Shown: piece by piece, positions 6,481 to 51,955 of the stretch
Layout of the letters: every line of letters starts with the position of its first letter
How positions within the stretch are numbered: the first letter of the stretch is position 1
IMG/VR virus record: IMGVR_UViG_3300045988_039227
Span: 1 to 64,000 of that record
Origin: a virus
Length of the DNA stretch: 64,000 bases
Strand: one strand, 5' to 3'
Translations under genes and position numbers: made by a program
The notes under the pieces: model-generated
The model's database searches: none
Seen by the model: only the letters and a program-made list of their open reading frames with translations
Told to the model about the DNA's origin: nothing

Positions 6481-6554
6481 GGACTTGTAGCTCAGCAGGT
6501 TAGAGCAACAGACTCATAATCTGGAGGTCCTAGGTTCAAGCCCTAGCTGGTCCA
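6481..6554 (+). tRNA. tRNA-Met(CAU): tRNA-Met (anticodon CAU; an Ile2-type lysidine tRNA is not excluded)
   Basis: Hand-folded cloverleaf. Acceptor GGACTTG/CTGGTCC; D stem GCTC/GAGC; anticodon loop CTCATAA (CAT at 6515-6517); T arm CTAGG-TTCAAGC-CCTAG; discriminator A. Confidence 0.85.
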
Positions 6555-6625
6555 CAATAGATGATTCCGTATATCTATAAATCCCGGATAGTTAACATTT
6601 GTTAAATCTCTAATAAATTATCAAA

Positions 6626-8727: not shown

Positions 8728-9222
8728 ATTCCTATATATTTTTAGCCATGTTTTAAGCGCTCTGAGGCAGAGTATGTCACCAAGTGGAGTAATTAACCAC
8801 GAGTGTCGCAAAAATGTCTTAGAGCGCACCTGAAACGGCTTAAACCGAATGTTCTGACTGATCATCGGAACATTTACAAGAATGTACAGTGTGTATGAAA
8901 TAATCTGTTTGGACAGGGGTTCGACTCCCCTCACGTCCACGGTTCCTCCTCTACGCTATTGTGTAGACTCCCTTTGGGCAACCTAGGTATGTTGTAAAAC
9001 TACCTACACGGGCGTGTTTGGTTTTGACAGACAGAGGAGATAAATACATTAAGCACTATACTATAAATTAAACGACAATGTAAATAACATTGTAGACTAT
9101 ACTAACGTAGCGTAAGTTTAGTCTAGGTGTTTCCTACCAAAGTGGAGAGAAGAAAGAAGTTGGTACCGTCGCCTTTTTGGTTTGGGTCTGGGGTTCGATT
9201 CCCCAGCTTCTTCCTATTAGTT

Positions 9223-12839: not shown

Positions 12840-13241
12840 ATGAAAAAATTAGTAATTACGTTGCTAGGAGCAGCATTTCTTACTATTGGCATGAATATTG
12901 CCGATCTTAAGAATGTTCCCCTTCCAACGACAGTGCAAACAGTAGCAGCATCTACTGTACAGCAACCAATGGATCATTTATTTGGTCAAGTGAATCGTGC
13001 TAATCCTGATACAGTGCATGATACCGTTAGGGTAGAAAAGCCTGTAGCTTGTAACCATAAACAGTCGCCTGTAAAGACGATTGTTAAACGCACCATAATT
13101 AAGAAGACAGATACGTCGTATGTACCACTTCTGTATATTATGGAACCTGGAGAAAAGGTCGACTCCACTAATCACAACTCTACCATTCGTAAGGGAGAGC
13201 TCCGTGATTATATTCAAATCGCCTCTAATGTATGCAAGTAA
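12840..13241 (+). CDS. secreted or signal-peptide protein, 133 aa
   Basis: N-terminus is MKKLVITLLGAAFLTIGMNIA. Confidence 0.6.
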   Translation: MKKLVITLLGAAFLTIGMNIADLKNVPLPTTVQTVAASTVQQPMDHLFGQVNRANPDTVHDTVRVEKPVACNHKQSPVKTIVKRTIIKKTDTSYVPLLYIMEPGEKVDSTNHNSTIRKGELRDYIQIASNVCK

Positions 13242-15367
13242 ACATAAGAACCCTGTATACCATAATTAGGTAAGTACATATAGTAGATCCCATTAGTCTA
13301 CGTACGAATATTAACTGGATCCGAGAATATGTTAACCCTGTCTTGCAGGGCGAGATCACTCAAAAGGTAGGATGAAATGTATCAAACATTGAAACAGTTT
13401 GATATAGGTAGGAGAAGCGTTGTATCAGCTCCTATAATTGCACAGCTGGACTTGTGAGAACCGTCTGGAGACAAGCTGGATGAGGCTGAATACACCTTAA
13501 AAAGATGTAGTGTAATTAAAAACGCATAAGTCCCAAGAAGGGCGTAATGAACCGTATCGTAATTATATGTGATAATACTAAGCATATACAAACGTTACAC
13601 GAGACGAACTATGTTGGTCCCCAGTAGGTGAACAGAATTGCATACATGGTATGGTGCATGGTGCTGGAAGAACCGAGGATACCCCAAACAACATAGAAGT
13701 ATTATTAGCCGTAGGTAGTGTTTCTAGTGTCCAAAGCTAGTATAAAGGCCGAAAAACTGCATCAATACTGTGGGAGTAATACCACACAGAGTAAACTAAA
13801 TGAGTTTGCTGACTATACCAAAACCTTACTGTTCGATTCAGTACAACTCCGTTGAAGGGGTGCCAGGGATGGGGTAGAAGTGTCTGATTGCGACCGCCAG
13901 GCTTTTCTTGTTTATGCGGTATATAAAAGTGAAACAAGCACAAGGGTTGGGCAGTCCCTTAATCGAAGCTCTACGGGAGTATCGTACGCGGGTGAAGATC
14001 GCGGTGAAAATCTATTCCAGTTATAATTAGGATGTTAGGCCATCCGAACTTATAGCCAATTTCCATGAAAATTAAATCGTTCATGAGATTATGATCGATG
14101 ACTCCGTTACAGTCAAAGAAAGTTGATGGAGAGCTATCCTAGAATAAGAAATAGCAAAAGCAGGTAGAAAGTTGATTCGAGATATATCCAGCCAGGATCG
14201 TTTGACCTCCACTTTCATCCAAAACGATTTAGACTAATAGTTTATTTGCACTATGATATACAATATTACATAGTCTCTACAGAGTAGTAAGCTGGTATAT
14301 TATGTATGCGTATGTTGTATGCAAGAGATATAAGCTATGAAAATCTAGAAAGTTTAAAAGATAACATGTTTAACAAAAATTGATGTCCCTTCATAGAGTG
14401 GATCTTACGTTGTAAGTAAGGGCTTGAGGTGAAGAAATCGAGTGCCAACCGATATGCCAACCATGCTAAAGTGTACTGCGCAACAGTATATGTAAACATA
14501 AAGGTTCGAAGCAATACAGGAAATTAATGGGCAGCTTATATTCTATGTTGTAAAACGACTGTGTATATTATATGTGTATACTGTCTCTATACATGTATAT
14601 TACGTTTATAAGTGGGTGACAAGATGAAATGTATGGGTTGAATTCCCAATATTCGTGCACTATAAATAGGAGGTAGTAATACCGGTACAGAAAAATTGCA
14701 AATATCAGCAAAGATACAAAAAGCCGTAAAGTCTGTGATGGGTTTGATCCTGAGACGTTCCGATAACCAACCGCTGGGTACATGCCATAAGCCGAGTACC
14801 GCAGTAAGGAGACCTAGCTGACAGTCGCTTCTAAGTTAGCAGTAGAGATCATCTGCTTTAATGACAATCGTGTAGGAATATCTTGTAAGTATAGTAAGGG
14901 AAATACGACCGAGATTCTACATATTTTCGTGGGTTATAAAGATTCTATGATTCTATGAGTGTTAGTTGCTCTGCAAAATTTCACCAACGAAGATTAGAAT
15001 AGTTAAGTTAGATAAAAACGTGAACAAAATAGCAGAAAACAGTTCAGCATTTGATTATGCAAAGAAAGCATTCAAAGCTTTAGACGATGGGCCTGGATAA
15101 TCCAGTAAATGTTAATTGCATCTTATGTATGTAATTCCTGTCACAAGCCTATTACCCTATTGTTGTAATAGGAAGAGTGTGACTAAGTCTATTAAAAGCG
15201 TCTACAATAGTAGAACTTTCTTTAGAAACTAAGTAAGCAAAAGCAGTAACCAAGTATCTTCGTATCAGCGTTGCTTTATTCAATAAACAACGGCAAAGGT
15301 GTAGCCAAAATACACCATATTTTTAAAATCATATCGTTAGTTAATCAATAACGATATCAAAAAGGAT
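13242..15367 (+). ncRNA. 2.1-kb ORF-free region, candidate large structured ncRNA(s) and/or replication/regulatory region
   Basis: There is no + strand ORF of 60 aa or more, and the three short - strand ORFs look spurious. Sampled local GC reaches about 45-53 percent. Hairpins include CCCTG-TCTTG-CAGGG (13335-13349) and GGTGAA repeats at 13990-14010. A perfect T arm TACTG-TTCGATT-CAGTA lies at 13826-13842. A conserved-loop hairpin lies at 15245-15275. Confidence 0.4.
15245..15275 (+). repeat. conserved-loop hairpin, copy 4
   Basis: Loop AAGTATCTTCGTATCA is closed by AGTAACC/GCGTTGCT: 7 bp with one G.T pair and one bulge. It lies about 100 nt upstream of ATG 15368. Confidence 0.55.
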
Positions 15368-15961
15368 ATGATTATGTCAGAAATTAATGTAAACATCGTG
15401 GAAACAACAATTAAGTCAAATCGTACCCCACTGAGTATTCTCGGTGGCAAAATGTTTGGTCAGGACGTATTTACTCCTCAGACCCGCTTCTTTAACCCAG
15501 ACCATGATAAGGTCTTGGAGCAGGCTAAGCAGAATTCTAACGTAGACCTTGTGCTCAATCGTTCTCCTCGCCGTTTCGCGATCGGTTATATCACGATCGA
15601 GTCTATGGCGACCAAGCAGAATGCAATCGGTGATGTCGTTTGCCGTCTTAATGAGGGCACAGACCATCAGATTGATATCCCTCTCGGTGAGAGTAGCACC
15701 AAGTTTGGTGAGACTACTGAAGAGGCAGTTCAGAAGGCTCTTAAGGACAAGAACTCTAAGGCAGTGTTCGCAGACCCTAAGGATCTGTGTGGTATCCTTA
15801 ATGACCTTAACCGCGGTGAGATCACTCGCCTTGACGGCATTATTGAGAAGGCTCAGAAGGCTAAGGCGCAGTGCTTGTCTGCCATCGCAGCAAATGAGAA
15901 GATCGTCGCTGATTATGAGCGCGAGAAGGCAGAGTCAAAACCAGCTGATCATATAGCATAA
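15368..15961 (+). CDS. hypothetical protein, 197 aa
   Basis: ORF track. Confidence 0.7.
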   Translation: MIMSEINVNIVETTIKSNRTPLSILGGKMFGQDVFTPQTRFFNPDHDKVLEQAKQNSNVDLVLNRSPRRFAIGYITIESMATKQNAIGDVVCRLNEGTDHQIDIPLGESSTKFGETTEEAVQKALKDKNSKAVFADPKDLCGILNDLNRGEITRLDGIIEKAQKAKAQCLSAIAANEKIVADYEREKAESKPADHIA

Positions 15962-24009: not shown

Positions 24010-24615
24010 ATGTTTAGTACAAAGACAGCCACAACTAGCAACGAAGAATTTAGTAATAGTAGTTATATGCCAGTAGGCATTAACCAGAATATCACTCTTA
24101 AAGAGGTAAACTGTAACAAGTCTCCTCAGGGTCTCGATTTTCTCGAGATTGTATTTGAGAATGAGAATGGTCAGACAGCTACTATGACTGAGTGGAAGAA
24201 TACAAAGGGAATGTATATTAAGACAGACGAAGACTTGCAGAAGCGTGATAACGCTCAGTTTGGACGAGTTTGTCAGATTCTTGATTGTTTCTATCCACAA
24301 CGACCAGATGCAGAGCTTTCTACATTTAAGGAGATGATCGACTGGACAAAGCAGATGCTTGACCCTATGATCGCTACCAAGAAGAAGCTCCGTTTGAAGG
24401 TTATTTACGATAAGAAGGGTTATACTCAAGTAAGTAAGCTCGGAATTTTCGTTGAAGACATGTCTAATACAGATTCGCAGATTAAGCTCTTTAAGAACGA
24501 TCTTATGGAGCGACCAGTTGTTGCCGACAAGGAGAACAACGATCCGCTTAACGTGCCACCAACAGTTACTCCGGAGACTGCGGATGCAGCAGGCGCATCT
24601 GATCTTCCCTTTTAA
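24010..24615 (+). CDS. ssb: single-stranded DNA-binding protein candidate, 201 aa
   Basis: Has an acidic C-terminal tip, ...ETADAAGASDLPF, comparable to the bacterial SSB tip DDDIPF. Sits in the replication block. Confidence 0.55.
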   Translation: MFSTKTATTSNEEFSNSSYMPVGINQNITLKEVNCNKSPQGLDFLEIVFENENGQTATMTEWKNTKGMYIKTDEDLQKRDNAQFGRVCQILDCFYPQRPDAELSTFKEMIDWTKQMLDPMIATKKKLRLKVIYDKKGYTQVSKLGIFVEDMSNTDSQIKLFKNDLMERPVVADKENNDPLNVPPTVTPETADAAGASDLPF

Positions 24616-25181
24616 GGGGTTTACGCCTGAAGAAATAGAAATACTGCTTGATTGTATGAAATCCGGTAAATGGTTCTTGTACCGTTTACATAGCAGGAGT
24701 GTCAAACTATACAGCAAGTGGATACACCCAGGGGGATAATACCGCCATGAAAGGGTGTTGGTGGAGCTAGGTAATTCAGTTACCCTATGGAGGTGAAATG
24801 CCTCCAATAAGGCTCGCAGGGTGTCGTGAGACACAAGCATGGACGAATGCGAAAACTACTCTAAAATGACGTTTTTAATCAGTGTATTATTTTCATTCTA
24901 AGTTTGTTATATAGACAACAGTCCAGTAGGGTTCGAATCCCTACAGAGCCACAACATTTCTGATGATAAGAAGAGTTACAACTTGCGAAAGTAATAGCTC
25001 TGTCCGCCTGTGAAGGCCGATATTATCTATGATGCACAGCTTACCTGGCATCAGATTTCATACGCGCGTACGCTACGTAAGTGCGGGTTTGAATAACCTA
25101 AAGTCCGAGCTTAGCATCTCCGTAAACTGCTATACGTCCGTCAACGTAGACCCGAGCATGTCATTAAACTGCTCATTTTTA
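24616..25181 (+). ncRNA. ORF-free structured island upstream of the tRNA-like genes (candidate ncRNA)
   Basis: Hairpins include GGAGG-TGAAATG-CCTCC, GTGTC-GTGA-GACAC (GNRA loop), GCAT-GGACGA-ATGC and the T-loop hairpin TAGGG-TTCGAAT-CCCTA (24927-24943). GGCTC (24809-24813) can pair with GAGCC (24946-24950). The palindrome TACGCGCGTA and the hairpin TACGT-CCGTCA-ACGTA are also present. Confidence 0.35.
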
Positions 25182-25285
25182 GGGAAGTTAGTCTAATGGT
25201 AAAACAAGGGCATTGATAGATTGGAATGTGTGCAAGCTTAAAAGAAACACTACCCTGCTTATCGGTTCGAATCCGATACTTTCCA
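25182..25285 (+). tRNA. aberrant tRNA-like gene, 104 nt, with a roughly 35-42 nt insertion in the anticodon region
   Basis: Good acceptor GGGAAGT/ACTTTCC; U8 A9; D arm GTCT-AATGGTA-AAAC; perfect T arm ATCGG-TTCGAAT-CCGAT. I found no 5-bp/7-nt anticodon arm, so isotype and anticodon cannot be assigned. Confidence 0.45.
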
Positions 25286-25300
25286 CTCGTTTTTATATTT

Positions 25301-25381
25301 GGGGTATGTATGTGCGCACTGAGAACGGTGACCTTCTTACGGAAAAGAAGGCAGTACGGGTTCGACTCCCGTATACTCCAC
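25301..25381 (+). tRNA. aberrant tRNA-like gene with Gln-like acceptor start and an expanded anticodon-position loop
   Basis: With T25300, the 5' end reads TGGGGTA as in E. coli tRNA-Gln. Acceptor GGGGTAT/ATACTCC; T arm ACGGG-TTCGACT-CCCGT. The hairpin at the anticodon position is CCTTC-TTACGGAAAA-GAAGG (10-nt loop, or 8 or 6 nt with a longer stem). There is no CTA triplet, and the D arm is non-canonical. Confidence 0.45.
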
Positions 25382-25394
25382 TAACTTATAAGTT

Positions 25395-26366
25395 ATGTAT
25401 AGTACTAGAACAGCAATTACTATGTCCTTGAGAGACATCTTGGACAAGGTAAATGATTTAGACATCTATACGTATTGTTTAGGGCAATTTAAAGTTGGAA
25501 GGCTTATGAATAGTCCTTTAAGGTCTGGAGATAAAAATCCTTCATTTGGAATATTTCATTCCAAAACAGGAGGGTTACTATGGAAAGACCTTGGAACTGG
25601 AGAGTATGGAAATGCTTTAAAGTTCCTAAAAGAATATAAAGGTATAACGACTAGAGAAGAACTTGAACGAGAATTATTGAGAATTGTGCGCAGAATAAAT
25701 CCTAACACAACTGTAAGGACAAATACGTACGATAAACCGAAAGGAGATACCGATATCGGAATAGTTCGACAGCCGTTTACCAATGTAGACAAACAATACT
25801 GGAAACAGTTTGGAATACATATTGATACCTTAAAAAAGTTCAATGTGTTCAGCATTAAATACTTTCTTTGTAATAGTATCGTCAGAAGTATCTACAAAGA
25901 AAATAGTCCTATGTATGCATATAAAGTGTATGATAAGTTTAAGATTTATCGTCCACTTGCTTCCAAGTTTACTAAATGGCGTACCAATCTGACAAATCGG
26001 CACGTACAGGGATTATCCGAATTGCCTAAGGAAGGAGGCGACCTGCTCATAATAACAAAGTCATTAAAAGATGTCATGTGTTGCTACGAGATGGGTTTTA
26101 ATGCAATAGCTGCTGCTAGTGAAACTGTATTTATACCTGAAGACATACTCAAGTCTCTACGATCCAAATGGAAACATATAGTAATACTGTATGATAGAGA
26201 TCAAACCGGTATGCATAAGGCTAGACAATACAGCAAACAATACAAATTAGATGCTTTTTTCATTAATAAGAAATTTAAAGCCAAAGATCTATCAGATGCT
26301 GTTCGTGACAACGGATTTAGCACCATGAAAGACTGGTTAATAAAAACGTTACAGAAATATGATTGA
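25395..26366 (+). CDS. DNA primase (TOPRIM domain), about 315-323 aa
   Basis: TOPRIM-like LLIITKSLKDVMCCYEMGFNAIAAASE...HIVILYDRDQTGMHKA (E...DxD pattern). An alternative start is ATG 25422 (MSLRDILDK). Confidence 0.72.
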   Translation: MYSTRTAITMSLRDILDKVNDLDIYTYCLGQFKVGRLMNSPLRSGDKNPSFGIFHSKTGGLLWKDLGTGEYGNALKFLKEYKGITTREELERELLRIVRRINPNTTVRTNTYDKPKGDTDIGIVRQPFTNVDKQYWKQFGIHIDTLKKFNVFSIKYFLCNSIVRSIYKENSPMYAYKVYDKFKIYRPLASKFTKWRTNLTNRHVQGLSELPKEGGDLLIITKSLKDVMCCYEMGFNAIAAASETVFIPEDILKSLRSKWKHIVILYDRDQTGMHKARQYSKQYKLDAFFINKKFKAKDLSDAVRDNGFSTMKDWLIKTLQKYD

Positions 26367-35500: not shown

Positions 35501-36463
35501 AACAAGTCTATCTTTAAATTTATTTAATTTGTCATCAATTTCGTAATATCTTTTTTCATGAATATTGCTCCAACTATGACCATATGCATCAATTATTTTC
35601 GGGTTTTTGATATTTAAATAGTCAACTTTTATATTATCATAAAGATTATTTTCAAATCTGTTTTTATATTTTTCCGGATTAGCGTTATTATGTATATCAC
35701 TAAAATTGTAAAACGACCCTATTATATCTTCATATACAGAAGTAATTAATTTAAAAGGAACATTTGGATCCTAATACTCAACAAATAGTCCATCTAATTT
35801 TAACAAACAATCTTCTGCGTCTTTTATGTTACCATAATTTATCGCTTCTATAATTTTTTTCTTAAGAATATTATTAAACCAATCAAAATTACGTTTATCT
35901 TTAAAATCAGATTCTTCAACATTGTTCAAAATGCTAATAACAGTCCTTTTGGAATCTGTGTACCACTATGAATATTTTTTTAATGTGGCGTCATTAAACG
36001 ACGATAATATATAACTAGTCACATCGTTATAAGTCGATGACATAGTAATGCTATCTGTATGATATATAGCAGTTTTAAAACCTTCTATATTTGTGTCAAA
36101 CTTCTTAAAATTAGGACTATATTTACTGTTTACTGTATGATATGTAACCTACGGCTCTCCATTCTTATCTACAACTTTAGATACATTTTCTTTATCTTCA
36201 GAAGTCCAATCCCCAAACCATTTAAAGAATTCGTCAGAATATACTTTTGCCTTAAGTATAAGGGCTTGTGTTCTGTCGCCGTTTGCAATATGCAATAGCT
36301 CTCCAAATAATATAGAGTCGGCGCCATTTGGCGCCTTATCTATACTATATCCATTATTTTTGCTCCAGAGTAAATACGCAGTATCCTCATCGAACAAATC
36401 TTTTAATTCACCAAATTCTTTGGCTACTTGTTTATTATGTAAATTAGGACATATTTCTTTCAT
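29561..36463 (-). CDS. giant virion-associated protein, 2300 codons, zincin HExxH motif, C-terminal TM and Met/Pro-rich tail (requires TAG as sense)
   Basis: ATG 36463 overlaps the upstream TAA (TAATG). I checked every in-phase triplet by hand: no TAA/TGA occurs until TAA at 29561-29563, and there are about 56 in-frame TAG. Track fragments 36149..36463, 32663..32845, 32102..32419, 31106..31315, 29981..30253 and 29561..29953 are all in this frame. HEMLH lies at 34536-34550. The C-terminus ends MAPMQPMPKMAPMAPMPGF. Confidence 0.75.
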
Positions 36464-39400
36464 TATTTACCTCCTTTGCAATGTTTTCTAATTCTTTCAG
36501 CTTCTTCTATATCTTCCTTAGTAAGATTAATCTATGCCAAAGCCTACTTCTGCTGTTCTTCTTTAATTAGTGTATTAGCGTAATTATCACCTACAACTCC
36601 TTCTATTGATAATCCGTAGCCAGTATAACCTGCTCTAGTATTTTCCTAAACTGTTGATTTTATGTTAAATCTAGAAAGTAATTGTAAACTAAGCCATTCA
36701 GCAGCCTCTCTAGGTAACGCTGCTTTGCCAAGAGCTATAGCGGATGGGAATACAATTGGTTTACTATTGTCTATTCTTGCAAGCATATGGTTAACCCATG
36801 ATTTAAATGCCATTATATCACCTTGATTATCCTAGAAACATCCATCTTTAGCAAGCCATCTACCAGAAGCATCTTGCTGATTAACTTTTACTACAAGACC
36901 AAACGCATTAGGTGTAATTTTGCCATCACTACCAGTTCTGATGCAAGCTTGATTTGTACCAGTAGCACCAGAGCTTACATTTAATACCGGATTCTAATTA
37001 GCAAAACCTTGCATAGACAAACCTTGCGCCTTAGCATAAGCCTAAGCATTATCTGTGAATACGTACTGTACATTTGGGTGTTGTTGAGGCTAGTCTTTAT
37101 AGAATAACTGTTTGCTTATATACACAGTCTATCCAGAAGGACCTTTACCATCAAGATTAATATTAACAGCACTTTGTGTACTTTGTTGTTCTACAGCTTG
37201 TGATATTGTAGGATATTCTGAATTAGCATTATAGTACATCTAATTGAACCACGACATCCAGTTATTGCGCTGCTCGTCAGTAATATTTGGCTTCATCTGA
37301 CTAAGATAAGTCATAAGTTTACTAAGTTGGTTTTCAATAACTTCTTGACTCATAGGAATTCCATTTATATTTAGGTTAATATCACCAGCTTCGTAGATAT
37401 TAAGACCATCTCTATCTGACCAGCCCCTCTTAGGTAATAACGCATATACGGCACGCTTGGATCCATTAATCATAGCCTCTCCAACCTTTTTATACAATGT
37501 GTATGACGTTGGATCGCTATATACTGCTCCATCATTTCGTACTGATATATACAAAGCATCATGTTCGTGAGAGTCCTTGCTAATTATTACAGCAGGAGAA
37601 TACTAAGCATTGAAAGCGTAATAGTAATCTTTGAATGTAGCTCTGCTTACTAAATCGCTATCCATATAGTTGTTCTAAGCTATAAGATCGTGATTAATTT
37701 CTGGGGCTTCAAGTTGTTCCCTAATATAATCAGAGAATGGCACCGTACTTTCGTCGTGTCTAGCTTCAAGCCAACTCATAGGAATGTATTTAGCTATTTT
37801 ATTAAAGCCCTTTGTATCGCCAGATGTAAGCATTGCATACAATATAAGATCATTCGCAAATCTTCTAACATTAGCCTAATGGTCATTAAGAAGCTCCTCC
37901 CAAGACTCTATAAACATATCAGAAGACATCTTACTCTCATCCATACTATTAATAACGCTTATAAACTTAGGTTTGTTAGTAGGTTTTCCGTTTACAAAAA
38001 CATCCTAATCCTAAATATATGGAGCAAGATGTGATAATAGATAGTTATCTTTTAATCTACCTAAACCGTATGCATCACGCTGAATACAAGCCTGTATAGA
38101 GTTCAATCTATCAAATATTGTAGCATTACCGTCAAATAAACCTTTAACATCAATACCTAAAGACTTAGCTAATCTAAGAGCGTATCTAGCTTTAATCTAA
38201 CTACTAGCAGCCTATGATATCTTCTTCATAGTCTTAGCGTTTCTAAGCAAATCGGACTCTCTGTCATTCGTCTTATATTTAAAGTCATCGGATAAATTGA
38301 TAAGCTATTCCATAAACTAAGGTGTACCCTAGAATGATTGTCCAGCCATAACTCTCATAGGCTCTTGAATAGCGTCTCTTGTTTTCTACTCAATCCAAGT
38401 ACCATGTATAAGATTATTGATAGAGTTCGTATCAAACAGCTAATCAGTTTCTGGGTTTGTAAGATTCTCGTAACCTCTAAGATAAGCTTGCATCTCAAGG
38501 AAATTCTTACCTTGCTTACGAGTATCAATCTTAGTATACTGTACCAAACTATTTAATGCGTTAGAATACTTTTCAAGACACTTCCATGCTATGTAGCAAT
38601 TAACCTAGAAGGCTCTAGCTCTTTCTCCCTCTTCGGTCTAAGCATAGACTAAATCTGGGTTCTTAGCAATCTTCTAAAGCATATCCATATTATTGAGTAC
38701 AGAGTTTACTATCTCTGCTCGTCTAGCTGGTTCGCCTTTAGATTTATTTGGTTCAGTAGCGTCTTTAATATACTAATCGTCTATTGTTTTGCCAGTAACG
38801 CTAGGGAATATCTCTGCGAGTCTCTTATCTCTCATTTCGAAAGCTGACCTAAATACCTTAGGATCTCTAGTAAACTGAGACTTTGCATCAATATCTGCTT
38901 TAGCCATCTCTCTAATAATAGGCTAACATAAGAAATAAAGACCTTGTTTACCCTTACCGTTTCTAGCAAGTAAGTTGATCATATTATATGTAAACCCATT
39001 TACATTAAGCTTAGAGATATATGGATCTTTCACAATATCTACGTGGGCATTAATGAATGCTGATAACCAAGATGAAATCTGATTATTATCTTCATCAAGA
39101 ATCTAATCGAAACCGGTAATACCTGTCATCCGTGTAAAGCTAGACTCTTTAAATTTAACACCATACAATGTTGTAAGAATATGGTTTGTTACATTCAACG
39201 CAAATGGACCAATACCAGTCTTACCTGTAATGTAGTCATTTTTACGGGTAACCTGTTCATGCAGTGTACCAAAGTTGTACGCTACGCTCTTTGTGTTACC
39301 CTGTTCTGGAATCTCATCTGCAATGCTTGTTACAAGCTCTGTATCATTATCGATAGATTTATATAAGATATTAAGTGACTTTTTATCCTTAAGTACTGTA

Positions 39401-42400
39401 AGAATACTTTCTATAATGCTATTCTACAATCCTTCTGCGCTTTCTGGATCAAATTCATAACCTCCATTCTCATTAACATTATAACGTGCTAAATAAAGGT
39501 GGTCTATATCAAAATCCGAACCAGTAATCTTGGTAAACTCAGTTGGAAGTATTACTGTAGATTTAACAGCAGGTACAACATCAACAAAACGTAAAGCATG
39601 TATAGATGACTGAGCCTGTGTAGGAATACGATAACCAATCGTATTAGATGTGGCATTTTCTCCGATTATATTATGATCTAAAAGCCATTGTCTAGCTTCG
39701 TTGTAAGATAAGTTCTTTGGAAGTATATCCTAGAAGTAATCAATAGATATTACAGCATCCATAGAGCCTTCTTCGTTTATCATCTACAATCTCTTACCAT
39801 TATAGATCTCCTATCCTTGTATACCGCCTTCGCCATTTTTGCCTTCTATAGCAAATACTGATCTCTGAATAAACGAGCTACCAGGAGTCATAATGTCAAT
39901 AATATCCTTATTAGCCGCAGATATAAGCATAGACTCCATCCAGCTAGCATCAGCAGTAGATGCAATAGGCGCATTCATTGAGCCCGTCTATGGATTATAT
40001 GTAAGAGCGTCTATAAGATTCTTATTAGCATTTCTTGTGCCAAGTTGCTCTATAAGGTACTCGCTAAGCTTCTTTTGGTCTATAATTCCGTTAGAGTAGA
40101 ATCTATCTTTAAATTTGTCTACACCAAGTTTAGAAAGCTTATTAATAGAGCCCATTAACTTGTCTCTAAGCTGTTCTCCAGTCATGTCGCCATACGTTCT
40201 ATCAAGTCGCAAACTAGATAAACAAACCTTAATCATCTGTGTACCGGCTGCTACAACATCACCTTCCTCTGGATCAGTATTAAGCTGTCTACGAAGCGCA
40301 GATAATCTCTGTGTATAAACGTTCAGCGGCTTACTAATAGTCTCTCCATCGAACTCAGAATGGCCTTGTAGACCAACCTTTACAGCAGATGTCATAAGAA
40401 GATTATCAACCTTATTTTCCTTCATCTTATCATACACATTCTTAAGTTTACCTGTGGCTATACAATCAAATATAGGGAACAACGCAAACTTATTATAATA
40501 TGGAACAGATAAGTTAGAAACCTTCTTTCCATTCGTTGTATGATCCCTAAATCCGTATGCTGTATATTTTGTTGTTACAAGATTCACTTTATTATACACA
40601 AGGTCGTATGCATCTTTTTGATCCATCCACGAATATTTATCAGAACTTTCAAGGATATTAATAGCCTTTGCTACGTCGCCGAATAGCGCACCTCTAGAAC
40701 GAAGCATTCTTTTGCACATATCTGCTGTAATGTAAGATGCACCATCGGCTACATTGATTCCACCAGTATAGGCTTTATAGAAGTTGTTAGCTCTAGTTTC
40801 TATCTTCTTAACAGCATCCTCGCCAAAGTCGTCTACAAGCCTAGCTCTTACTGCGCCTATATCTAAATCATCAACACCTTTAAATCCGTAACGGTTTCCA
40901 TAGATTTCCCTAAGTTCACCATCACGCATCTTCTCTTGGAGTTCGCTCATTACATCGGCATTTGAAGCTACTTCATAGTCTGCTATCTCTGCACATCTAT
41001 AAAGTTCTCCATCTGAACCATCATAGTTTGGCAACGATGGGACGTTGTCATCACCTGTAGACACAAGGCCACCGATACGTTTCTGAATATCCTCTACGTT
41101 CTTAAAGAATCCAGGGTTGCCAATATATAATCTCAAGCATTCTTCTGATGAAATCATACCCCTATTTGTAACATCTTGTAATATAGCTGCTATAGCCATA
41201 CTATACGCTGTACGCTGTAAATTTTGTGTATTAGGCGTTATTCCTTTATCGGTGAGATCTTTATACATCTAAGCGTATAAAGTGCGTTCTACAGCATCTA
41301 TTTGGCTCTAATTAAGGTTTATGTTATTAAGGCCAAGGTAACCAAGCTTTTCATCTTTTGACACTATACCAAGACTAACGGCTTTATCTACCTCAAGTTC
41401 GTACTGCTCCTAAAGTGTTAAAGCCATTATCTACTCTTGCTCTTCTCTAGACTTATCAAAGAACTGTTCATTAAGAGTCTTAAGCTATTCGTCAGGAGAC
41501 ATATTGCTTATTTCGTAGCGTTTAATCTAGCCGTCTTCATACACTCTAAGTGTCGTAAGTGATTTAAACTGAATACCACCAGGCTACTTTCCTTTCTTGC
41601 CGATGTGATAATTCATTATCTTGTCTTCATCATTAAGTACGGGTAAGCCCTTAGGGTTATCTACATGTAAACCAAGTTGTTCTCTACAATCAAGTATAGC
41701 TTCACGCTCTGTATAAGCATATTCGATAAACTGATTTAATACAGATTGATTAGGCTGCAAATAGTAGTGAGAGCTATCTAAGAATATCATCTTTGGTGCA
41801 CCGGATACAGTATAAGCACCATTGTCTAACTACCCGAACTACATTCCAGGGATATTTATACCACCAAGAACCATATATGTACCCTTATCGGCAAGGGTTG
41901 GGAATACACAATATCCATTCTGAAGCATTGCGAACTTATTAATATAATCTTCAGCTTCAGCAAGATTGCTATATTTAGAACCATTGTCACCACGATTATC
42001 AGACTTGAAGCCAATAGGAGTATAAATACTAATATTGAAATCTTCTCCGTTCTGCAATTGCTTTGCAACAATAGAACCCATGTTCACGCCATTATTATTC
42101 ATAATGTTGTAACTAGACTACAAAATAGTCCTTACTACCATATTGTTCTTATCATGACTATTAAGGTTCTCTGTAGTATTGCTAATACTATTGTTCTATG
42201 ACTCGTTATACAGCTTAGTACCATCCATACCATTAGACATCTTATCTGTAGTAATCTTCATATAGGCTCCAGCCCAGTTACCTAATTCGCTAACAAAACC
42301 AGTCTTAAATATCTCGTCTACAGCCTTCTGTGTTGTATAACCATTTGTTTGTACGACTTTGCCGACTGCATCAATAAAACTATTAATATTAGATACACCA

Positions 42401-45400
42401 GTAGATGCAATCCACTTTTTAAGGGCTTCTCTACCAACGCCATTATACTTTGTAGATAACATATGATCGAGCATTTCTTTTGTAAAGTTTATACCAAGCA
42501 TATTAAACTCTTTGCATATATCATCTTTAAGTACCTCGATATCACTATTAGATGCTGCGCTTCTAATCCTTCCGTTTATCTTAAATTCACTAGCAGAATC
42601 ATTAAGTATCTACGATTGTAAATCAGAGAAGAACTGAGATATAAATCTAAATGCGTTTCTTGCTACAGTCGTAGGCATATCTACCTAAGTATTCTTTGTG
42701 TTATACTTTGTAGAAAGAAGCAATTGTCCATTCTACCCAACATACCTCTACAATAAGCCAGATTGACCAGAAGATAAGAACGAGTTCCAAAGCTTAGGGT
42801 ACATTCTGGCATCTCTGTCGAAGTTTGCATCAGATATTTTGACTTCAACACCTCCGTTCTTATTACGTATAGACCTACCAATAATAAAGTTGTGTTCATG
42901 GCCCTTTATAGCTGTAAAGATTTGTATCATAAACGCTTCTTTATCGAAGTCTATCTTTTCAAGCTAATTATCGTCGTTGAATGTATAGATAGAATTGTAT
43001 AGATCGCTATACTTCTAATAGATTGCCATATACATAGGGTTCTGCGTAGATAACTCCTGCAGTCTATTTAATAAGTCTAAAGGAGTTTTAACATCATGTA
43101 ACTTGCTAACAACTACATTAAATACCTGCTTAATAGGCATAAATGTAGGAACGCCATATATGTTCTTAGATGTATCAAGAGCAAGTTTACCGTTATCATC
43201 AAACTTATAGTAAGGTATTGTAGCAAAGAACATCTTCACTGGCTTACTTACAGAATCAAGCTTATTGAACTCAAATGCGGACTTATCGTATCTTTCGATA
43301 GACTTTCCATAATCATTCTCTTCCTGGTCACTTGTCTCAGAATCGTCATCATGCTGATATTTGCCGTCATAGGCATCCATTATTTCGGTAAGATACTTCT
43401 ATACTTCTTTTGATATAGCTGAGAAGTTAGGGAATACAACATCACCTTTATCATTTAATTCTGCGTAAAACACTTCTCTAAATGCTTGCTGTGTAGGAGT
43501 AACTGAATCAACAGACATATACTATCCATTCAGAACGGGCTTAACAGAACCTGGCTCGCCAATAAGGTTGTTTATAACCTTCATTGGTATATATTTAATA
43601 GGAAGTTCTGAAGAGCTGTGTACTGCATCATATATATCAGTAGCATCTTTAGCAGACTTTACTATAATATATCCAAGAGCTCTAGCCATATGTTCCTTCT
43701 CAGCGGCAGAGCCTATATGATCGAATTTGCGTCCATTTATTTCATAATGCAAGTCTTCGCCAAACAGCTTTTTAAATCTATCTTGCTGTTCTTTGCTTAC
43801 CTATTTATCTGCATATTTTCCAGACTTAATATCGTTGAACAAAGTAAGAACCGTTTTAGCATTGTTTCTGTAATGCCACAAGATACTTAATCTGTTAGCT
43901 ACTTTCTTTATATTCCTCTTAATCCAGCCTTGTTTCTTTATAGCATTAGCGTCTTTTGTGCCGAGCATATAATCGACGAATAAATCAGCCAATCCCTCAG
44001 CTACATCTCTTTCTGTAGCAGCTTCTGGATGAGCTTTTCTGTATGCAGAATACATCTATTCTCTTACAGATGGCTCTACAAGTAATTCTAATGCCCTATG
44101 GAATCCTTCATGGAAGCCAATAGTATAAGGAACTGAATTAGACATCTAGATAACAGCATCTGTACACCTAGCAAGTACTGCGCTATTCTTTTTATAAGCT
44201 ACATCTGATAACCTTTCGCTTTCTACCCACTATGGAGTAATACCTGTTGTCTTTCTGACCCATTCATCAACGGCACTAGCAAATGATGGCTTTTGTTTCT
44301 AGCCTTCAAACTCTGATAAATCTTGTTCATAGAACAAAGACATAAATGTGTCTTCGGCCTACTTTTGCTGCTATTGAATATCTTGTTTAGCAACTGTTTT
44401 AGATGCTTGCTGAGCGCTTCCATTTGGATGATTTTGTACAAGCTCTACATTATCTACGTATACTGTAGGAGGATCAAGTTTAGCTGCATATGACATTAAA
44501 TAACCATTGCGCAGCATATAACCAAGACCGGTAGTACCTTTGCCATCATGAGTAAAGTCTTCTCTTGTAAACGTAAGACCATTTGGAAGTTCTACTTTAT
44601 CAAGGTTAGGATTTGATGCATATTGCGCATTAAGCTTAGCTAATACACTATTATGTGATGACTATATATATTGCTGCATATTCTACTGAACAAATGCAGC
44701 ATCTTTTGTCATATACATATTACACAGAGCATTGTAGATATTAGCGTAGTCTACACTAGGATTTTGCGTAGGGTAAATAACATTACCTATTATAACTCTC
44801 TTATTAGCCGGATCTAATGTAACAAGACCTTCTATTGAGTTATATTTCTCATTTAATACTTTATTGTCAGCCTTAATATAAAGAACCTGCTTAAGTAAAT
44901 CGTCTATAGAATATCCTTGATACTCATTTAAACCTTGATAACATTTATACCATATAAGGTCTGCAATCTTATTAGCCTAACCACCTTGACCAGCAGTAAA
45001 TTTAGGCTGTATTAACGGCGTACCAATACATCTATTATCTACAGCTTTCTCAGTCTGACCAGTATCATAGAAGTATACAATATTACCAGATTGTGTTATA
45101 GCTGTACGTTTTATATATTCTAGATCAAATCCACTAATTAAAGTTGATAATTCTGGGCCACCATATACCATCTTCGTTACGTCACCAGTGTTTACGTTTT
45201 GTGTAGCCTTAAGGAAACCTATTCTGTTACCAGCGTCGCATGTAATATTGTACAAATCATGCTAATTAAGCGTTCCTGCGAACAAGAATTTACTTACAGG
45301 CTATAATTCACTACCGTTCTTAATTGAACCCTTAGAACGGCTTAATTTCATGCTTATATGGTATCCTGGATGTGTTTTCATAAAGTCGAGCATATACTTA

Positions 45401-48400
45401 ACTTTCTATACAAACACAGCATCTGCAGCTTTCTTTCTAGCAAAATATACCGGATCAACACCCCTTGGACCAGCGTCATTACCCTGGTCGAATGTCATAA
45501 AGATTGTTCTGCCTTTAGAATCTGTAAGCTTAAGCTATACTTCATTATTTCTCCACACAAGCTCAGCATTACCAGATTTTCCAGAAGCATCTGGGTAAAT
45601 CAAATGCGGATCAAGCGCTATAGAGAAGTAATGCGGGTCAAGTTTAGCCCTAAATGCAGGGAAATGTTTAGTAGTATCACTATACAGCTCTCTCCATTGA
45701 TCGTCAATCATATTGATACTCTACGCGCTGTTTGTATCAAGTATATCGTCAACATTTGGATCTACAGGGAATCTCTGGTTATATTCTCTAATGAAGTCTT
45801 CTGCATCATAAATAGTATCAGTAAGCGCATTATCAAGAGCTGTATTTGTTTTCTATACATTCTTTGTATTATCAGTCAAGAACTTAAGCTAATTATTTAT
45901 AACCGTACTCCAGAATCTTTGCAAACTCTTGTTGCCAACAAGGCTATTCATAAACTCGCCATCAAATGTAGCAAGGAATGACTTAATCTTGTTAAAATAA
46001 GTAAAGCTAGGATTACCAATATTAGATGAAAATTGAGTCTGCCACATTTGTAAGGCCTTATTTGCAGCGTCTCCGTACATCATCCTATTGTCTACTAGCT
46101 TATTAATAGCTGCTGCTATAAGCTTCTGCTCTGGAAGGGTATCGCCAACTTCAAACTAATCGCTACCGTAGAATTGGTCAAGAGCTGTCTAGGCATCATA
46201 TATTGAGTAAATAAGCTCATTAACTTGAGCTCGTTCGTCTGCTGTTGTAATATTAAGGTTTGTAATAGAACTTAACAGCGTATCAAGTTTCTTGCAGATT
46301 TCATGAATAGTATCAAGACCCGCCTAATATTGTTCATCTACAATAACGTGATCAAACGCATCTTCTGGGTAGAATCCAGGTACAGTATTCTCGTGCTATT
46401 TAGGCTACATGAGCTAATTTAAGCGCATCTGAGCGTCTTCTTTTAAGCTCTGGATAGATTCTATAGCTGAGTAAAGATCTCTCATCTGAAGTAATAATTC
46501 GTCCTTATTTGAGCCTTCTTTAAATATATCGTAAGATGGTACAGTTTTATGTTCGCCACCAGCTTCAGCAATACTATCGTATATACTTTGCAAATCAGAC
46601 ATAAGATCGTTTACTTTATTCTGCAAAGGTCTGACAACTTCGTTAGAAATATCTTCATTAGATTTATTGTAATATGGTGTTACAGGCTTGTTGAAATCAA
46701 GCATTTCTACTTTAAATACAGGTTCTGCTACAATTCCACTCGCTGTTCTATCATAGTAGAATGGCATTACGTATGTGCCTTCAATATTAGAACCAAATGT
46801 ATCGTAAAGTACCTAATTTAATCTTTGAAGCTATCTCTATTCCTACTGGATCATTGTTTCTTTAGCTCGACTATTGGACTTCTAATTACCAAGCATTCTG
46901 GTTTTTATGTCTGGTTTAAATGAAGATCTAACATCTATAACAAGAAGCTATCCATCATTATCAACAAGTACAATATCAGCCTATGATTGTATAGCTCTGC
47001 CTTTGTCATCATAGCCATAAATAGGAATGTCTGTATCAAGTACTCTATACTGACCGCCGTTGAGCATTCTGTCTCTAACAGACTTAACATACTGCTTAGC
47101 ATCTTCTAGTCCATTCGGATTATCTAACAGCGTGTCGGCAAAACTATCGTCATTTCCTAACATTATAGCCTATGCTAGTTCCCTAATAGTTTCTCCATCC
47201 CTTATAGACTGAGAATTAAAATAAGCTGTATCTATTGATGCTAAATAATGAGCAAATCCCTATAATAATTCCCCTTTATTTGGCTGAGAAAATATTGTGT
47301 CAATTATATCAGAATAATCTTGATCTCCGAATCTATCTGTATTATCTGCAAGATATCCAAGTATCTACTATTTGTCAGAGATGTTTATATTTTCCTCAAT
47401 TTCTGGATAATGAGACTGATATTCAAGTCTGTCTATCTCGTCTATATTTTCAAATACATGTAGATTATTATTATCGTCGTACGCTATTGTTGTATGGAAA
47501 CAATGTACAATAGCTCTGTTCTATTGACGCTTTAAAGCCTTTCTGTATCCATCGAATGATGTATCTTGAGAGGCATGTGTGGCAACTTGTGCTCCATAAG
47601 ATTGTACATCCATAGGAGTATTCATATTCTCCTTTTCTTTACGTGTTGATGTAAGGTAATGGCGAATATACATTGCTTTTGCTAAAGCTAATACTGAAGG
47701 TCCGCCGTCCTAACCAGTCTCTTCTTGAAGAATAGTTTTTATATCATTGTAGAGCTATTCAAACTTATAGAAACCAACCTTAGCGTTCTCCATAAGACCA
47801 TCGAATGACTACATTGCAAGTTCATCAAATCCAAGTAAAAATGATACTCTTGCTTTATTGCGCCTAGCTTTGCGCTTCTTTCTATAATGCTCTCTAGCCT
47901 TATCTCTACGACGTTTATATTCTTCTGCGTGTTTCTAAAGCTCCTCTGTAGTAGCTATATGCTTTTGCTAAGTTTCTGTTGGGTCTACAGCTTGCTTAGC
48001 TTGAGTATTAATGTCTTTTATATCTTCCTATGCAGCTTTAAGTATATCATTCTAGTAATCCTCTGTAAGCTTTGTTACAGCGTCTCCAGAATATATATCG
48101 GATAACATCCAGTCTATATTTTCATTCTGTTTGTTTGCATCGATAATCTTTGTGATACGCTCGTTAAGCTTACTCTTTGACCCGTCTTTAGCCGCAGCTC
48201 TAGTATGTTCTTCTGGCTTATATTTATCACCGAGCTTCTGCTTTAACTCAGCCTGCTTTCTCTGATACCTAAGCTCATCTGGATTATACTCAAGATTACC
48301 ATTATCATCACGTGTAACGCCTTCTGTGTGAATTGATAATGTAGAGTTAAGTAAGGATTCGTTAGCTGTATACATAGCTCTAGCTTGTTCGAGCTCCTGG

Positions 48401-51400
48401 ATCTCGTTATCATTAAATCCAACAGACTCGCTAAAATTGTTCAAGAATTGTAATGTCTATTCGTCTGTAGACTTCTCGTCGAAATTCTTATAAGCTTTAG
48501 CTAAACTTTGCTTTGCGCGAGCAATTTGTTTATCTATATTAGCAGACAACAACTTAGCGTCAGGTCTAACGGTCTTTAATCCAAGCTTATCGTGAGCAAA
48601 CTTAAATATGTCATCAATAGAATTCATCTTTGCTTTAAGTGTAAGCAATGCTTTCATTCTATTGTGAGCTTCAGAATTTCTCTGGAAGTTATTTATATGT
48701 CTATCGTGCTCTTCTTTCTATGAGCGCTCAACAAACTTTTCGCCATATTCGTTTGCTTCATCTTTGATAGATTCTTTGTATTCTACTACAGATTTTTCTA
48801 CTTCCTCTTGAGGCAAAGCTGCTGTATCAAGAGACTTCTTGTACTCATCCACCTTTCTGTTAACATAAGACTCGATTGCCTTAGTCTTTGCTGTAGCTGC
48901 ATTTATAGCAGTTAGCATAGGATCTCTTGACTATTCCTATCTATTTACAGCCTGTTCTACCTGATTTTGATAACCTTGCTGTCCGTAAATCTACTGAAGT
49001 CTAGCCTCGGCTTCCTACTAAGCTTTTCTGTTAGCAGTTAACTATTGCTCGATGTTAGCCCTATCAGCTATAGCTACATTGTATTGTTCTGTACCTTTAC
49101 TGATACCTTTAAGACGATATTGCTGTTCAGTCTACTTATTGTTTACGAGAGCAGAAATACGCTCCACATTAGACTGTAAATCATTCCAATACTGTTCACC
49201 AAAACGTGGTCTCTCTCGCTTCAAATCAGCCTCTCTGAGCTACTATATTTCTGTAGTCAGCTAATTATACCTTCCCTTAGAGATCTGGTCTGAAATAACA
49301 GCATTACTAGCTCTATTCATCTTTCCTTGTTCTCTATCAAGAAGCGCACTGTGCATTATAGCGTCTTTTACTTGTACGGTGTTCTTAATGTCATTAACGG
49401 CATGATAGATGTTCATGGCTACCATAGGATGCATACCACCCATAGCAAAACCACCTCGCCAGTTTGACAACATCTCCATATCGTTATAAAGTTCAGATTC
49501 GCCAAGACCAAACATACCTTTATAGAAGTCTGATACCTCTTTGCTATGAGCCATATCCTGGAATGCAAGACTGAGCAAATCAGCTGATCCGTATCCATAT
49601 GTCTTAGCAAACTCTTCAGCAGCATTAGCATTCAACTGCTGTACAATTTCTTCATTTCCTTCAGACGCTCTATCTATAATACCTTTTCTAACCGTATTGA
49701 TACCGTATTTGTTAAGCATTTTGAGAGCAGTAACTGTATTAGGATTCTTTACGGCTGCTTTCAGTAGTTTTCTCTTCAGCGTTTTAGCTCCAACCATAGT
49801 TGCTAATGCTTCAGCCTTCTTCGCTATAGCCTCACTAGCCATAACTCCTGCGTCTTTTAGAGCTTGCGGCATGACTTCTTTTGCAAGCCCCTTTACTCCC
49901 CTAGCAACTTCTCCTGCGGCAGCACCAACTCCAGCGCCAACATAATGTCCAAGAACACCACCACCAAGTACATCCATTGTTGTTGAGCCAATCTTTGCAC
50001 CAGTTTTGCCAGCTGCACTTGTAAGAGAGTTAACATACTGTCCAGCCTGTGCAAATTTACTTTCAACAGCTCCGTTTAATCCCGCGAGAGCATAGTCTGT
50101 ACCAATAACCAATCTTCCAGCTTTACTAGTGGCAAGCTTTGCCCCAAGTTTTGTTGTAGGAAGTTTATAGATGGCTTGTCTATAAAGACTTGATAGACTA
50201 TTGCCTGGCTATACATATGATATAACGTTTTGAACAACTTCTGTACCCATCGTTCTAGCGTTATCTACCATAAATTGCTATTCAAGACCTTTTGTTGTAC
50301 CGAGTTTAGCTTTAGATAAACGTGGATCATTACTCTTTGTAACGCCCATTAGGTAATCACTAAGAACTTTTTCCTTACCTTGCTGTGTATTAAGATTATA
50401 TCTATCCTCGGCATCTTTCTTAGACATACCATTCTACATTGCAAATTTTACAGACTGCTTTTGCAAATCTTTATACGATGCAGAAATACCTTGTGCTTTA
50501 CCGGAAGCTTCCTACGCTTCGTATTTATTAAGATTCTATTGATAGTTCTAGGTCCAACGTTGAGCAATTTCAGCGTAGTTCTCATCTTCTGCACCTTGCA
50601 GATTAAATGGAAGTGCAGCTGCATTAGCAGCGTTGTACAAAGCAAAACCAGCTTCTGGATGTCCGGCTGCTCCCAAAGCAAAAGAACCGACAGTACCAGC
50701 AGTTGTTATAAGATTACCAATATTACCTGTGTCTGAAGACCAAGAAGAACCCATCTGTTGAGGCAAATTCCACAACCAATAATCAGGTGTTAATAGATCA
50801 TCATTAGCATGTATATTTGCAAGATTCTCAGCATGTTTACTAACGTTCCAGAACTTCTTCCACTTAGACGCTCTACGCATCTAATCGTCAAGAGTTTCTT
50901 TGTAATCCTTAAGATCTTGCTAACGCTTAGCTTTAAATTGATTTGCTTCTATTTCTTTTTGATCCAAACTCATTCCTTGATGAGCCTTTTCAAATCTATT
51001 GGATAGCTACTTATTATAGTTATCAAGCCAATCCCTAGCCATCTACTCTTTGGATCTACCTGTGCCGTCAAACATATCATTTGTGACAGCAAATGCCTTA
51101 GTCATAGCAGCCTGAAATCCTTCCCACATAGATGTATGATCTTTCATCCATGTAGCCTTGTATGCATCGGCGAGTTCATTTAAATCTTTGTCTTGCAGCT
51201 AATCGTATGTTGACAAGATTTCTTTACCAAGTAAATACGTATCTTTCCACGCATCTCCTTTAACCTAAGCTTTAGGATTAGCTTTAAGGTAATTCCATTG
51301 GTCTTCCTTTGATTTAAGATCTCTTTTAAGTCGCTCCCTTTTGGACCATGCATCAGCTTTTGCCTAGTCTGTCTAAGCTAAAGCGATTTTACCCTTTGTG

Positions 51401-51948: not shown

Positions 51949-51955
51949 AATTTAA

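Follow-up and report, generated by a model that had tools for sequence, protein, structure and literature searches.

Candidate non-decoding tRNA-like modules in a variable cassette ahead of the primase gene of a TAG-recoding crAss-like phage

Introduction

RNase P, RNase Z and the CCA-adding enzyme can all recognise their substrate from the acceptor/T-arm minihelix of a tRNA alone. At MALAT1 mascRNA and MEN-beta (Rfam RF01684), RNase P cleavage sets the 3' end of a non-coding RNA (ncRNA) and frees a small tRNA-like RNA. Phage T4 encodes stable RNAs (species 1 and 2, RNA C and D) in its tRNA cluster, and murine gammaherpesvirus 68 (MHV68) encodes tRNA-miRNA-encoded RNAs (TMERs), which are RNA polymerase III units linked to microRNAs; the function of both sets is still unclear, and we know of no hypervariable cassette in T4. 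Phages also carry large ornate ncRNAs, GOLLD and ROOL, which are highly structured and often lie beside tRNAs or contain them. In plant mitochondria, t-elements adjoin mRNA ends, where RNase P and RNase Z cut them to generate 5' and 3' termini (Forner et al., 2007; PMC1920247). Here we analyse two adjacent, aberrant tRNA-like genes, gene 1 and gene 2, in a 64,000-nucleotide (nt) stretch of viral DNA (IMG/VR record IMGVR_UViG_3300045988_039227, positions 1 to 64,000; hereafter the window). The window comes from a crAss-like phage (Suoliviridae, Oafivirinae, Burzaovirus), a member of an abundant group of human-gut phages. The reading we favour, at about even confidence, is that both genes are non-decoding tRNA-like modules that would be excised as tRNAs are and would punctuate an operon, and that they do not read TAG.

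Results

Two tRNA-like genes with intact ends and abnormal middles

The original prediction, made from the letters of the window, described two genes with textbook acceptor stems and T arms and abnormal middles, and our analysis agrees: each gene has 7/7 acceptor pairs and an intact T arm. They lie between a structured RNA and a primase open reading frame (ORF), as follows.

24616–25181, plus strand: conserved structured ncRNA, ~565 nt (alignment of 21 relatives, covariation)
25182–25285, plus strand: gene 1, tRNA-like gene (Rfam tRNA, 40.9 bits); acceptor 25182–25188/25278–25284, D arm 25191–25205, T arm 25261–25277, discriminator A 25285
25211–25252, plus strand: gene 1 insert, CATTGATAGATTGGAATGTGTGCAAGCTTAAAAGAAACACTA, 42 nt replacing the anticodon loop (42 against 9 positions in the cmscan alignment)
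25286–25300, plus strand: spacer between modules, CTCGTTTTTATATTT, 15 nt, A/T-rich (sequence)
25301–25380, plus strand: gene 2, tRNA-like, 80 nt at its best bounds (acceptor/T-arm pairing, fold, homologues); acceptor 25301–25307/25373–25379, T arm 25356–25372, discriminator A 25380
25381–25394, plus strand: 14 nt from the gene 2 discriminator to the primase ATG (sequence)
25395–26366, plus strand: DnaG/Toprim-type primase ORF (Pfam Toprim_2, Toprim_4), whose counterparts are annotated DNA primase in the Burzaovirus genomes cr7_1 and cr124_1

By cmscan, gene 1 exceeds the gathering threshold of the Rfam tRNA model (RF00005; threshold 29), with model positions 1–71 all matched. Its acceptor (GGGAAGT/ACTTTCC) contains a G3:U70 pair (25184/25282) and is followed by discriminator A. 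The T arm, ATCGG-TTCGAAT-CCGAT, has a 5-bp stem and a 7-nt loop that fits TTCRANY, and the D arm (GTCT-AATGGTA-AAAC) forms 3/4 pairs with G18 and G19 present. The earlier description of a 104-nt gene with 42 nt at the anticodon loop is borne out by the alignment, in which those 42 nt take the place of nine model positions (31, loop 32–38 and 39) within a 4-bp stem; the standard arrangement, a 7-nt loop with U33 and a purine at 37 on an anticodon stem of 5 bp, is absent. The insert has no stable fold of its own (z = +0.99) and shows a single substitution across nine copies. No second copy of it, as a repeat or mobile element, occurs within the window, and an exact search of IMG/VR with the 3' half, aimed at an ancestor free of the insert, returned only the same gene and one unrelated class II tRNA.

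Gene 2 pairs GGGGTAT with ATACTCC in its acceptor, again with G3:U70 (25303/25377) and discriminator A, and its T arm, ACGGG-TTCGACT-CCCGT, has a 5-bp stem and a 7-nt TTCRANY loop. Hairpins at 25317–25330 and 25332–25351 stand in for the D and anticodon arms. The first, CACTG-AGAA-CGGTG, follows nine unpaired nt and replaces a canonical D arm. The second, CCTTCTT-ACGGAA-AAGAAGG, is the CCTTC/GAAGG hairpin described earlier, and the fold (minimum free energy -27.9 kcal/mol, z = -2.2) agrees with its loop of 6, 8 or 10 nt, none of these being the 7 nt of an anticodon loop. Even at E<=10, cmscan gives gene 2 no Rfam tRNA match. The covariance-model check named in the original prediction thus separates the two: gene 1 scores as a tRNA and lacks the anticodon loop, and gene 2 lacks both. 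The likeness of gene 2 to the start of tRNA-Gln proved superficial.

Could these nevertheless be decoding tRNAs, gene 1 with a new type of short intron and gene 2 with an expanded or contracted loop, possibly reading TAG? With intron detection (-i), ARAGORN reads gene 1 as tRNA-Ile(GAU) containing a 31-nt intron; at a low threshold it reads gene 2 as tRNA-Arg(ACG); and insertions are found repeatedly at the anticodon loop, where tRNA introns classically lie. We consider decoding highly unlikely all the same. Standard ARAGORN makes no call on gene 1. The predicted splice site falls at 36/37 and not 37/38, the predicted anticodon stem contains a C·A mismatch, and one point mutation turns the call from Ile(GAU) to Val(GAC). 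An insert of 31–42 nt is far under group I size and has no intron or ribozyme match at E<=10; more broadly, cmscan at that threshold found no credible small ribozyme or known RNA family around the genes (24300–25700). Pfam identified no RNA ligase or splicing endonuclease among 20 early-region ORFs, only replication proteins, and the fact that we know of no tRNA splicing endonuclease in bacteria counts in the same direction. The intron once offered is a weak idea on these results, and we reject it as the leading reading of gene 1.

Both genes carry G1-C72, G2-C71, G3:U70 and A73, the alanine/tmRNA (transfer-messenger RNA) identity set, in which G3:U70 and A73 are alanine determinants. Against the tmRNA model, gene 2 scores 18.1 bits by its ends, and the phage itself encodes a tmRNA. 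The genes might then be alanine-accepting, tmRNA-like domains for ribosome rescue or another Ala-tRNA-dependent process, for which we see only a very slight chance: neither has an ORF with a resume codon or pseudoknots, the gene 2 score is far under the gathering threshold of 47, permissive cmscan (E<=10) gives gene 1 no tmRNA match, and many sister modules are without G3:U70. Neither gene is a tmRNA or a group I intron host.

The genes belong to a hypervariable cassette

Comparative loci, cited below by L numbers, were anchored on primase in 80 IMG/VR contigs and two RefSeq genomes, and module families were set by eye plus a simple stem/T-loop finder. Across these loci the stretch from conserved upstream sequence to the primase ORF is hypervariable. 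The slot holds one to four modules in 31 close relatives, drawn from at least 14 unrelated families, and up to six in metagenome contigs. What the modules have in common is only the acceptor stem, a T arm of the GGTTCGAnTCC type, short A/T-rich spacers and the trailer. Some are minihelices of 43–49 nt, and only two families reach the Rfam tRNA threshold. The odd modules and the canonical tRNAs of these phages have the same trailer, in which C(A/T)A follows the discriminator and no CCA is encoded; that of gene 1 likewise begins with C.

The position of the cassette is constrained at both ends. In 72 of 83 loci (70–98% primase identity), the distance from the end of a tRNA or tRNA-like unit to the primase ATG is 14–32 nt, and in close relatives the first module begins 2–6 nt past the terminal hairpin of the structured RNA. 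Ordinary tRNAs (Leu, Lys, Trp, Thr, Asn) often fill the same pre-primase site in distant relatives. Content, by comparison, varies greatly even among phages that are 93–98% identical. Genes 1 and 2 occur together only in the window; elsewhere gene 1 stands alone or with a 49-nt minihelix or other module, and gene 2 sits with other partners. An extra element of ~300 nt (CTATGCAAAAAGAGCTAGG...TTGCAGTTTATATAGATAC) lies between modules and primase in L009, L025, L070, L181 and L183–L185.

One locus shows how modules are shuffled. Relative to L184 and L185, L182 (OGFM01016528.1) is a chimera: its 5' part is that of gene 2, its 3' part is that of another module, the join lies inside GGTTCGATTCC, and ~380 nt are missing. 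The junction falls inside the T loop and gives direct evidence that T loops recombine with one another.

Chimeras of this kind are also what decaying tRNA pseudogenes, or unselected remnants of recombination in a tRNA island, would leave behind; the aberrant anticodon regions and the broken T stems of some module copies (L004, L024) fit as well, and tRNA islands of large phages turn over. We judge decay improbable. Gene 1 is 99–100% identical (103–104/104) in eight relatives in which the flanking structured RNA and primase gene are 91–95% identical, so that 0–1 differences are seen where flank divergence predicts ~6. The acceptor and T stems are perfect, the slot is filled in nearly all relatives, and substitutions keep pairing. 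Homologues of gene 2 in L025, L030 and L181–L185 are 94–96% identical, with 75/80 identity where primase identity is 85%, and 3/3 stem substitutions among them preserve the pair. This conservation argues against plain decay; either strong constraint or recent horizontal spread could produce it. Because the copies of gene 1, and those of gene 2, differ little among themselves, structural support for their middles is thin.

A predicted role in RNA processing

We favour excision and punctuation because the occupants of the cassette share just the enzyme-recognised half of a tRNA and are placed exactly between an RNA and an ORF. The cassette would be co-transcribed with the early replication operon, host RNase P would cleave the 5' end of each module, and RNase Z or 3' trimming would act after the discriminator. 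Three kinds of product would result: the upstream structured RNA, its 3' end now defined; small, stable RNAs of tRNA shape; and primase mRNA that begins with a leader of 14 nt. The modules themselves would have been derived from ordinary phage tRNA genes and shuffled by recombination in their shared T-loop sequence, and TAG, read as Gln, would be served by a separate tRNA(CUA) near the dUTPase gene, outside the window.

Two properties expected of processing elements are present. The acceptor and T arm are kept across modules and the decoding parts are dispensable, and the modules lie at the boundaries of other RNAs, 2 nt past a hairpin and T-run on one side and 14 nt before the primase ATG on the other. 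The same layout occurs a second time in the window. A permuted tmRNA of the two-piece type (8850–9206; Rfam RF04321, 64 bits; ARAGORN tag DNVNNIVDYTNVA) is followed by a 60-nt acceptor/T-arm minihelix (9154–9213), annotated 'tRNA-Cys' in cr7_1, and the next coding sequence starts at ~9219.

Several observations weigh against punctuation as the whole explanation. Punctuation alone needs no such diversity of modules, nor does it account for the apparent constraint on their middles: the stem substitutions of gene 2 are all pairing-neutral, the gene 1 insert is conserved as well as the rest of gene 1, and one 21-nt module loop is nearly invariant while its stems covary (L026 against L028). The alanine/tmRNA identity set, found in 7 of 18 module families including genes 1 and 2, is likewise left unexplained. 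A weak hairpin and T5 before gene 1 could stop some transcripts, although a simple scan calls no terminator.

Alternative roles for the variable middles

The apparent constraint on the middles, the enrichment of G3:U70 and an excess of palindromes suggest that the modules may also serve as mimics, decoys or payload scaffolds. Decoys were among the options of the original prediction. In the main rival or complement to excision and punctuation, the cassette would be a product of an arms race in which the tRNA body provides processing and stability and the variable middle binds or titrates a host factor, candidates being a tRNA-targeting defence nuclease, a tRNA-binding enzyme, alanyl-tRNA synthetase (AlaRS) and EF-Tu. 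Such sponges would fit a cassette whose content differs among nearly identical phages, modules that are better conserved than their flanks, and stems that covary around conserved loops. They would also fit the exact placement of insertions at the anticodon loop of four tRNA bodies that are unrelated (42, 21, 26 and 86 nt, those of 26 and 86 nt being, like that of gene 1, in genes that score as tRNAs), and a second tRNA island, whose perfect cloverleaves have anticodon loops of 6 or 8 nt and an anticodon stem that covaries. G3:U70 is enriched, and 7 of 18 families contain perfect palindromes of at least 10 nt, where 1.3 are expected (maximum 5 in 1000 shuffles). We regard this reading as possible and rather unlikely: there is no known target, modules of 43–49 nt have no middle to display, no antisense target was found in the window, and the literature searched describes no such decoys in crAss-like phages.

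Frequency of the alanine/tmRNA identity set among the module families is far above expectation for a random tRNA set. The palindromes may form tetraloop hairpins whose loops are self-complementary, or serve as sites of RNA dimerisation or of protein binding to DNA. Examples are TCCTTGCAAGGA in the L003 mini module, CTAGGCGCCTAG in L006, GTCTGCAGAC in L012 and AAGGCGCCTT in L008, and many have GC-rich cores (GGCGCC, TGCGCA, CTGCAG). Gene 2 contains GTGCGCAC at 25312–25319; the palindromes of genes 1 and 2 are individually not significant. An antisense payload was considered and rejected: complementarity to the gene 1 insert elsewhere in the window extends over 14 nt at most, lies on the non-transcribed strand and is equalled in length by 7/200 shuffles; for gene 2 the maximum is 10 nt.

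TAG recoding and its suppressor

The genes had drawn attention as possible agents of TAG recoding, and the recoding itself is well founded: in the late block, on the minus strand at 29.5–64 kb, ORFs of 2301 and 5162 codons exist only if TAG is read as sense. TAG means Gln in these genes, as judged from alignments: compared with 21 relatives, the TAG columns of one late gene swap almost exclusively with CAA/CAG, and because TAG alternates with these codons we assign it to glutamine. Distant alignments, in which TAG positions favour polar residues and Gln, are in weak agreement. An assignment to alanine, an idea prompted by G3:U70, is ruled out by the same alternation.

ARAGORN, Rfam and a regular-expression (regex) scan found no tRNA(CUA) in the window, as the original prediction had stated. 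ARAGORN reports only tRNA-Met (6481–6555) and the permuted tmRNA, to which Rfam adds gene 1, and YTCTARN loops closed by at least four pairs (regex, window) are confined to intra-ORF sites without a downstream T arm. One correction is needed, namely that CTCTAAA does occur in the window, for example at 24859, yet never in a stem. The CTCTAAT motif of the cr7-type module, tried as a hidden anticodon, has no flanking stem either.

A separate suppressor was a further possibility raised at the outset, and relatives support it. A canonical tRNA(CUA) stands beside dUTPase in cr7_1, the closest relative with a complete genome (NC_055895.1 9123–9194; arm GGAGU-CUCUAAA-ACUCU). By collinear offset (tRNA-Met at window 6481 corresponds to cr7_1 18263) this locus lies ~2.6 kb ahead of the window start; cr7_1 contains no DNA match to the first ~2.6 kb of the window, and collinearity there is assumed. 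A 53-nt pattern from the left end of the window had no metagenome match. In 15 of 28 relatives ARAGORN places tRNA(CUA) immediately ahead of dUTPase (canonical copies in L141–L152, L156, L158 and L160); among them are all four gene-1-bearing contigs that cover the locus. The suppressor of this exact genome thus most likely lies just outside the window, near dUTPase.

Some relatives only appear to lack a suppressor. Six TAG-recoded relatives seemingly without tRNA(CUA) keep its exact 3' half behind an insertion with an HNH-type ORF. In five (L187, L194, L208, L217, L243) ~490 nt is inserted after the anticodon stem, and upstream of the ORF these have a complete cloverleaf with the loop C(C/U)CUAAA and a non-TΨC T loop, AUGGACA; in L193, ~1 kb lies inside the anticodon loop (CUCU|...|AAC). 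ARAGORN and Rfam miss both the interrupted and the non-canonical forms, and the insertions have no Rfam group I match. Missing suppressors in TAG-recoded Suoliviridae are a question left open in PMC7886860 and in a 2026 preprint on crAss phages of Segatella copri, and interrupted or non-canonical tRNA(CUA) may explain them.

Genes 1 and 2 are not needed for recoding, because relatives carry a separate tRNA(CUA), intact or interrupted. Neither gene has CUA at positions 34–36 of a 7-nt loop, and both carry the Ala-type G3:U70 and A73, which do not match the Gln meaning of TAG. The proposed link between the odd genes and recoding is accordingly undone, with canonical tRNA(CUA) present in four carriers of gene 1, and the unconventional decoding once suggested for them is unlikely on the same grounds.

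The upstream RNA and other tRNA-like loci

RNAalifold gives the 565-nt RNA 163 pairs in 25 helices, some of them long-range, with 99.1% of cells paired. Sixteen pairs are compensatory, compared with 6.4 +/- 1.3 in shuffles (0/500) and 0–5 in slid registers. Its 3' end is the hairpin GAGCATGTCATTAAACTGCTC followed by T5, 2 nt ahead of gene 1. It matches no Rfam family by cmscan and may be a new large phage ncRNA. One domain has the features of a tRNA or tmRNA:

24811–24951, plus strand: tRNA/tmRNA-like domain within the upstream RNA (RNAalifold helices 10, 13 and 17)

This domain has a GGCTC/GAGCC stem, a T arm (24926–24944) and a TGGAC/GTCCA helix, and its hypervariable segment contains the CTCTAAA at 24859. 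A bona fide tmRNA (91 bits) takes its place in the distant relative L076. A permuted acceptor pairing in the RNA, ACAGAGC/GCTCTGT, was rejected: GCTCTGT covaries with a local hairpin instead.

The tRNA island upstream of dUTPase (L147, L148, L150, L152, L154, L155, L159–L161) includes otherwise canonical cloverleaves with anticodon loops of 6 or 8 nt. The loops are UUAAAG / UUUAAAGA / UUUGAAGA, and AACAGA. In the AACAGA-type tRNA the C1xA72 mismatch is initiator-like and the anticodon stem covaries; this tRNA adjoins an initiator-like tRNA-Met.

The source phage

The early region of the window is ~90–95% identical in DNA to cr7_1 and cr124_1 (both Burzaovirus). A giant late ORF on the minus strand (36463–51951), virion RNA polymerase-like, has 31–36% protein identity to those phages and 49% to Chuhaivirus cr130_1. 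By these comparisons the genome is a mosaic, Burzaovirus-like in its early region and diverged in the giant late ORF. The early region contains two stretches without ORFs of at least 100 codons (13241–15368 and 1–1598). Outside the window, cr7_1 encodes a reverse transcriptase beside tail and fibre genes (NC_055895.1 4850–5809), which is likely part of a diversity-generating retroelement. Two ~101-kb contigs of gene-1-bearing phage relatives (L179, JAJWOH010000001.1; L180, JAJXAL010000002.1) are found in GTDB genomes labelled 'MAG: Segatella copri'. They are probably mis-binned phage genomes, and the binning is a weak hint that Segatella copri is the host.

Discussion

The literature searched contains no description of the module cassette or of the 565-nt RNA, which together make up an undescribed RNA island in abundant gut phages: a structured RNA followed by shuffled tRNA mimics that we read as non-decoding. 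One practical result is the removal of a false lead, in that the odd genes are not the missing amber suppressor. Another is an account of how suppressors escape detection, whether by lying in another tRNA island, by carrying HNH-ORF insertions, or by adopting a non-canonical cloverleaf that tRNA finders miss.

Should the mimics prove to be processing signals, they would be a bacterial-virus counterpart of organellar tRNA punctuation. If instead they are decoys, they would be a new class of RNA-based counter-defence. In its fullest form, put forward tentatively, the decoy proposal holds that Oafivirinae maintain an exchangeable library of tRNA-scaffolded small RNAs, whose members would counter tRNA-targeting defences or translation factors of the host by mimicry or as decoys. 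It is a doubtful but conceivable part of that proposal that the anticodon loop is replaced by a payload of 20–86 nt or cut to 6 nt, that many members are of the Ala/tmRNA type, and that host tRNA enzymes mature them. Equally speculative is the further part, in which T-loop recombination shuffles the set and the set is coupled to the new, ornate ~565-nt RNA.

Known systems share individual traits with the cassette. The tRNA-like domain of tmRNA (RF00023/RF04321) resembles genes 1 and 2 in its G3:U70 acceptor, A73 and T arm, and is itself without an anticodon arm; unlike tmRNA, the two genes have no mRNA-like part and no pseudoknots, and score 18 bits (gene 2) or nothing (gene 1). Bacterial tRNAs with group I introns are, like gene 1, interrupted at the anticodon loop. 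Their introns, however, are roughly at least 200 nt with a P1–P9 core, whereas the gene 1 insert is 42 nt and has no core. The upstream RNA differs from GOLLD and ROOL in matching neither Rfam model.

Other systems are nearer in what they do. The t-elements of plant mitochondria are, like the modules, derived from tRNAs, non-decoding and reduced to a kept acceptor and T arm (Forner et al., 2007; PMC1920247). They differ in being organellar and in forming no shuffled multi-module cassette, and their cleavage has been demonstrated where that of the modules is inferred. MALAT1 mascRNA and MEN-beta offer the other half of the arrangement, a tRNA-like element directly after a long structured ncRNA; they are eukaryotic and nuclear, bear no sequence relation to the modules, and lack the position directly upstream of an ORF that the phage modules also occupy. 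The T4 stable RNAs and the MHV68 TMERs are virus-encoded, tRNA-shaped and non-decoding, as we propose for the modules, and are processed with tRNAs; they differ from the modules in sequence and architecture. The functionally closest known systems are the plant-mitochondrial t-elements and MALAT1/mascRNA, and among viruses the T4 stable RNAs and the MHV68 tRNA-like RNAs.

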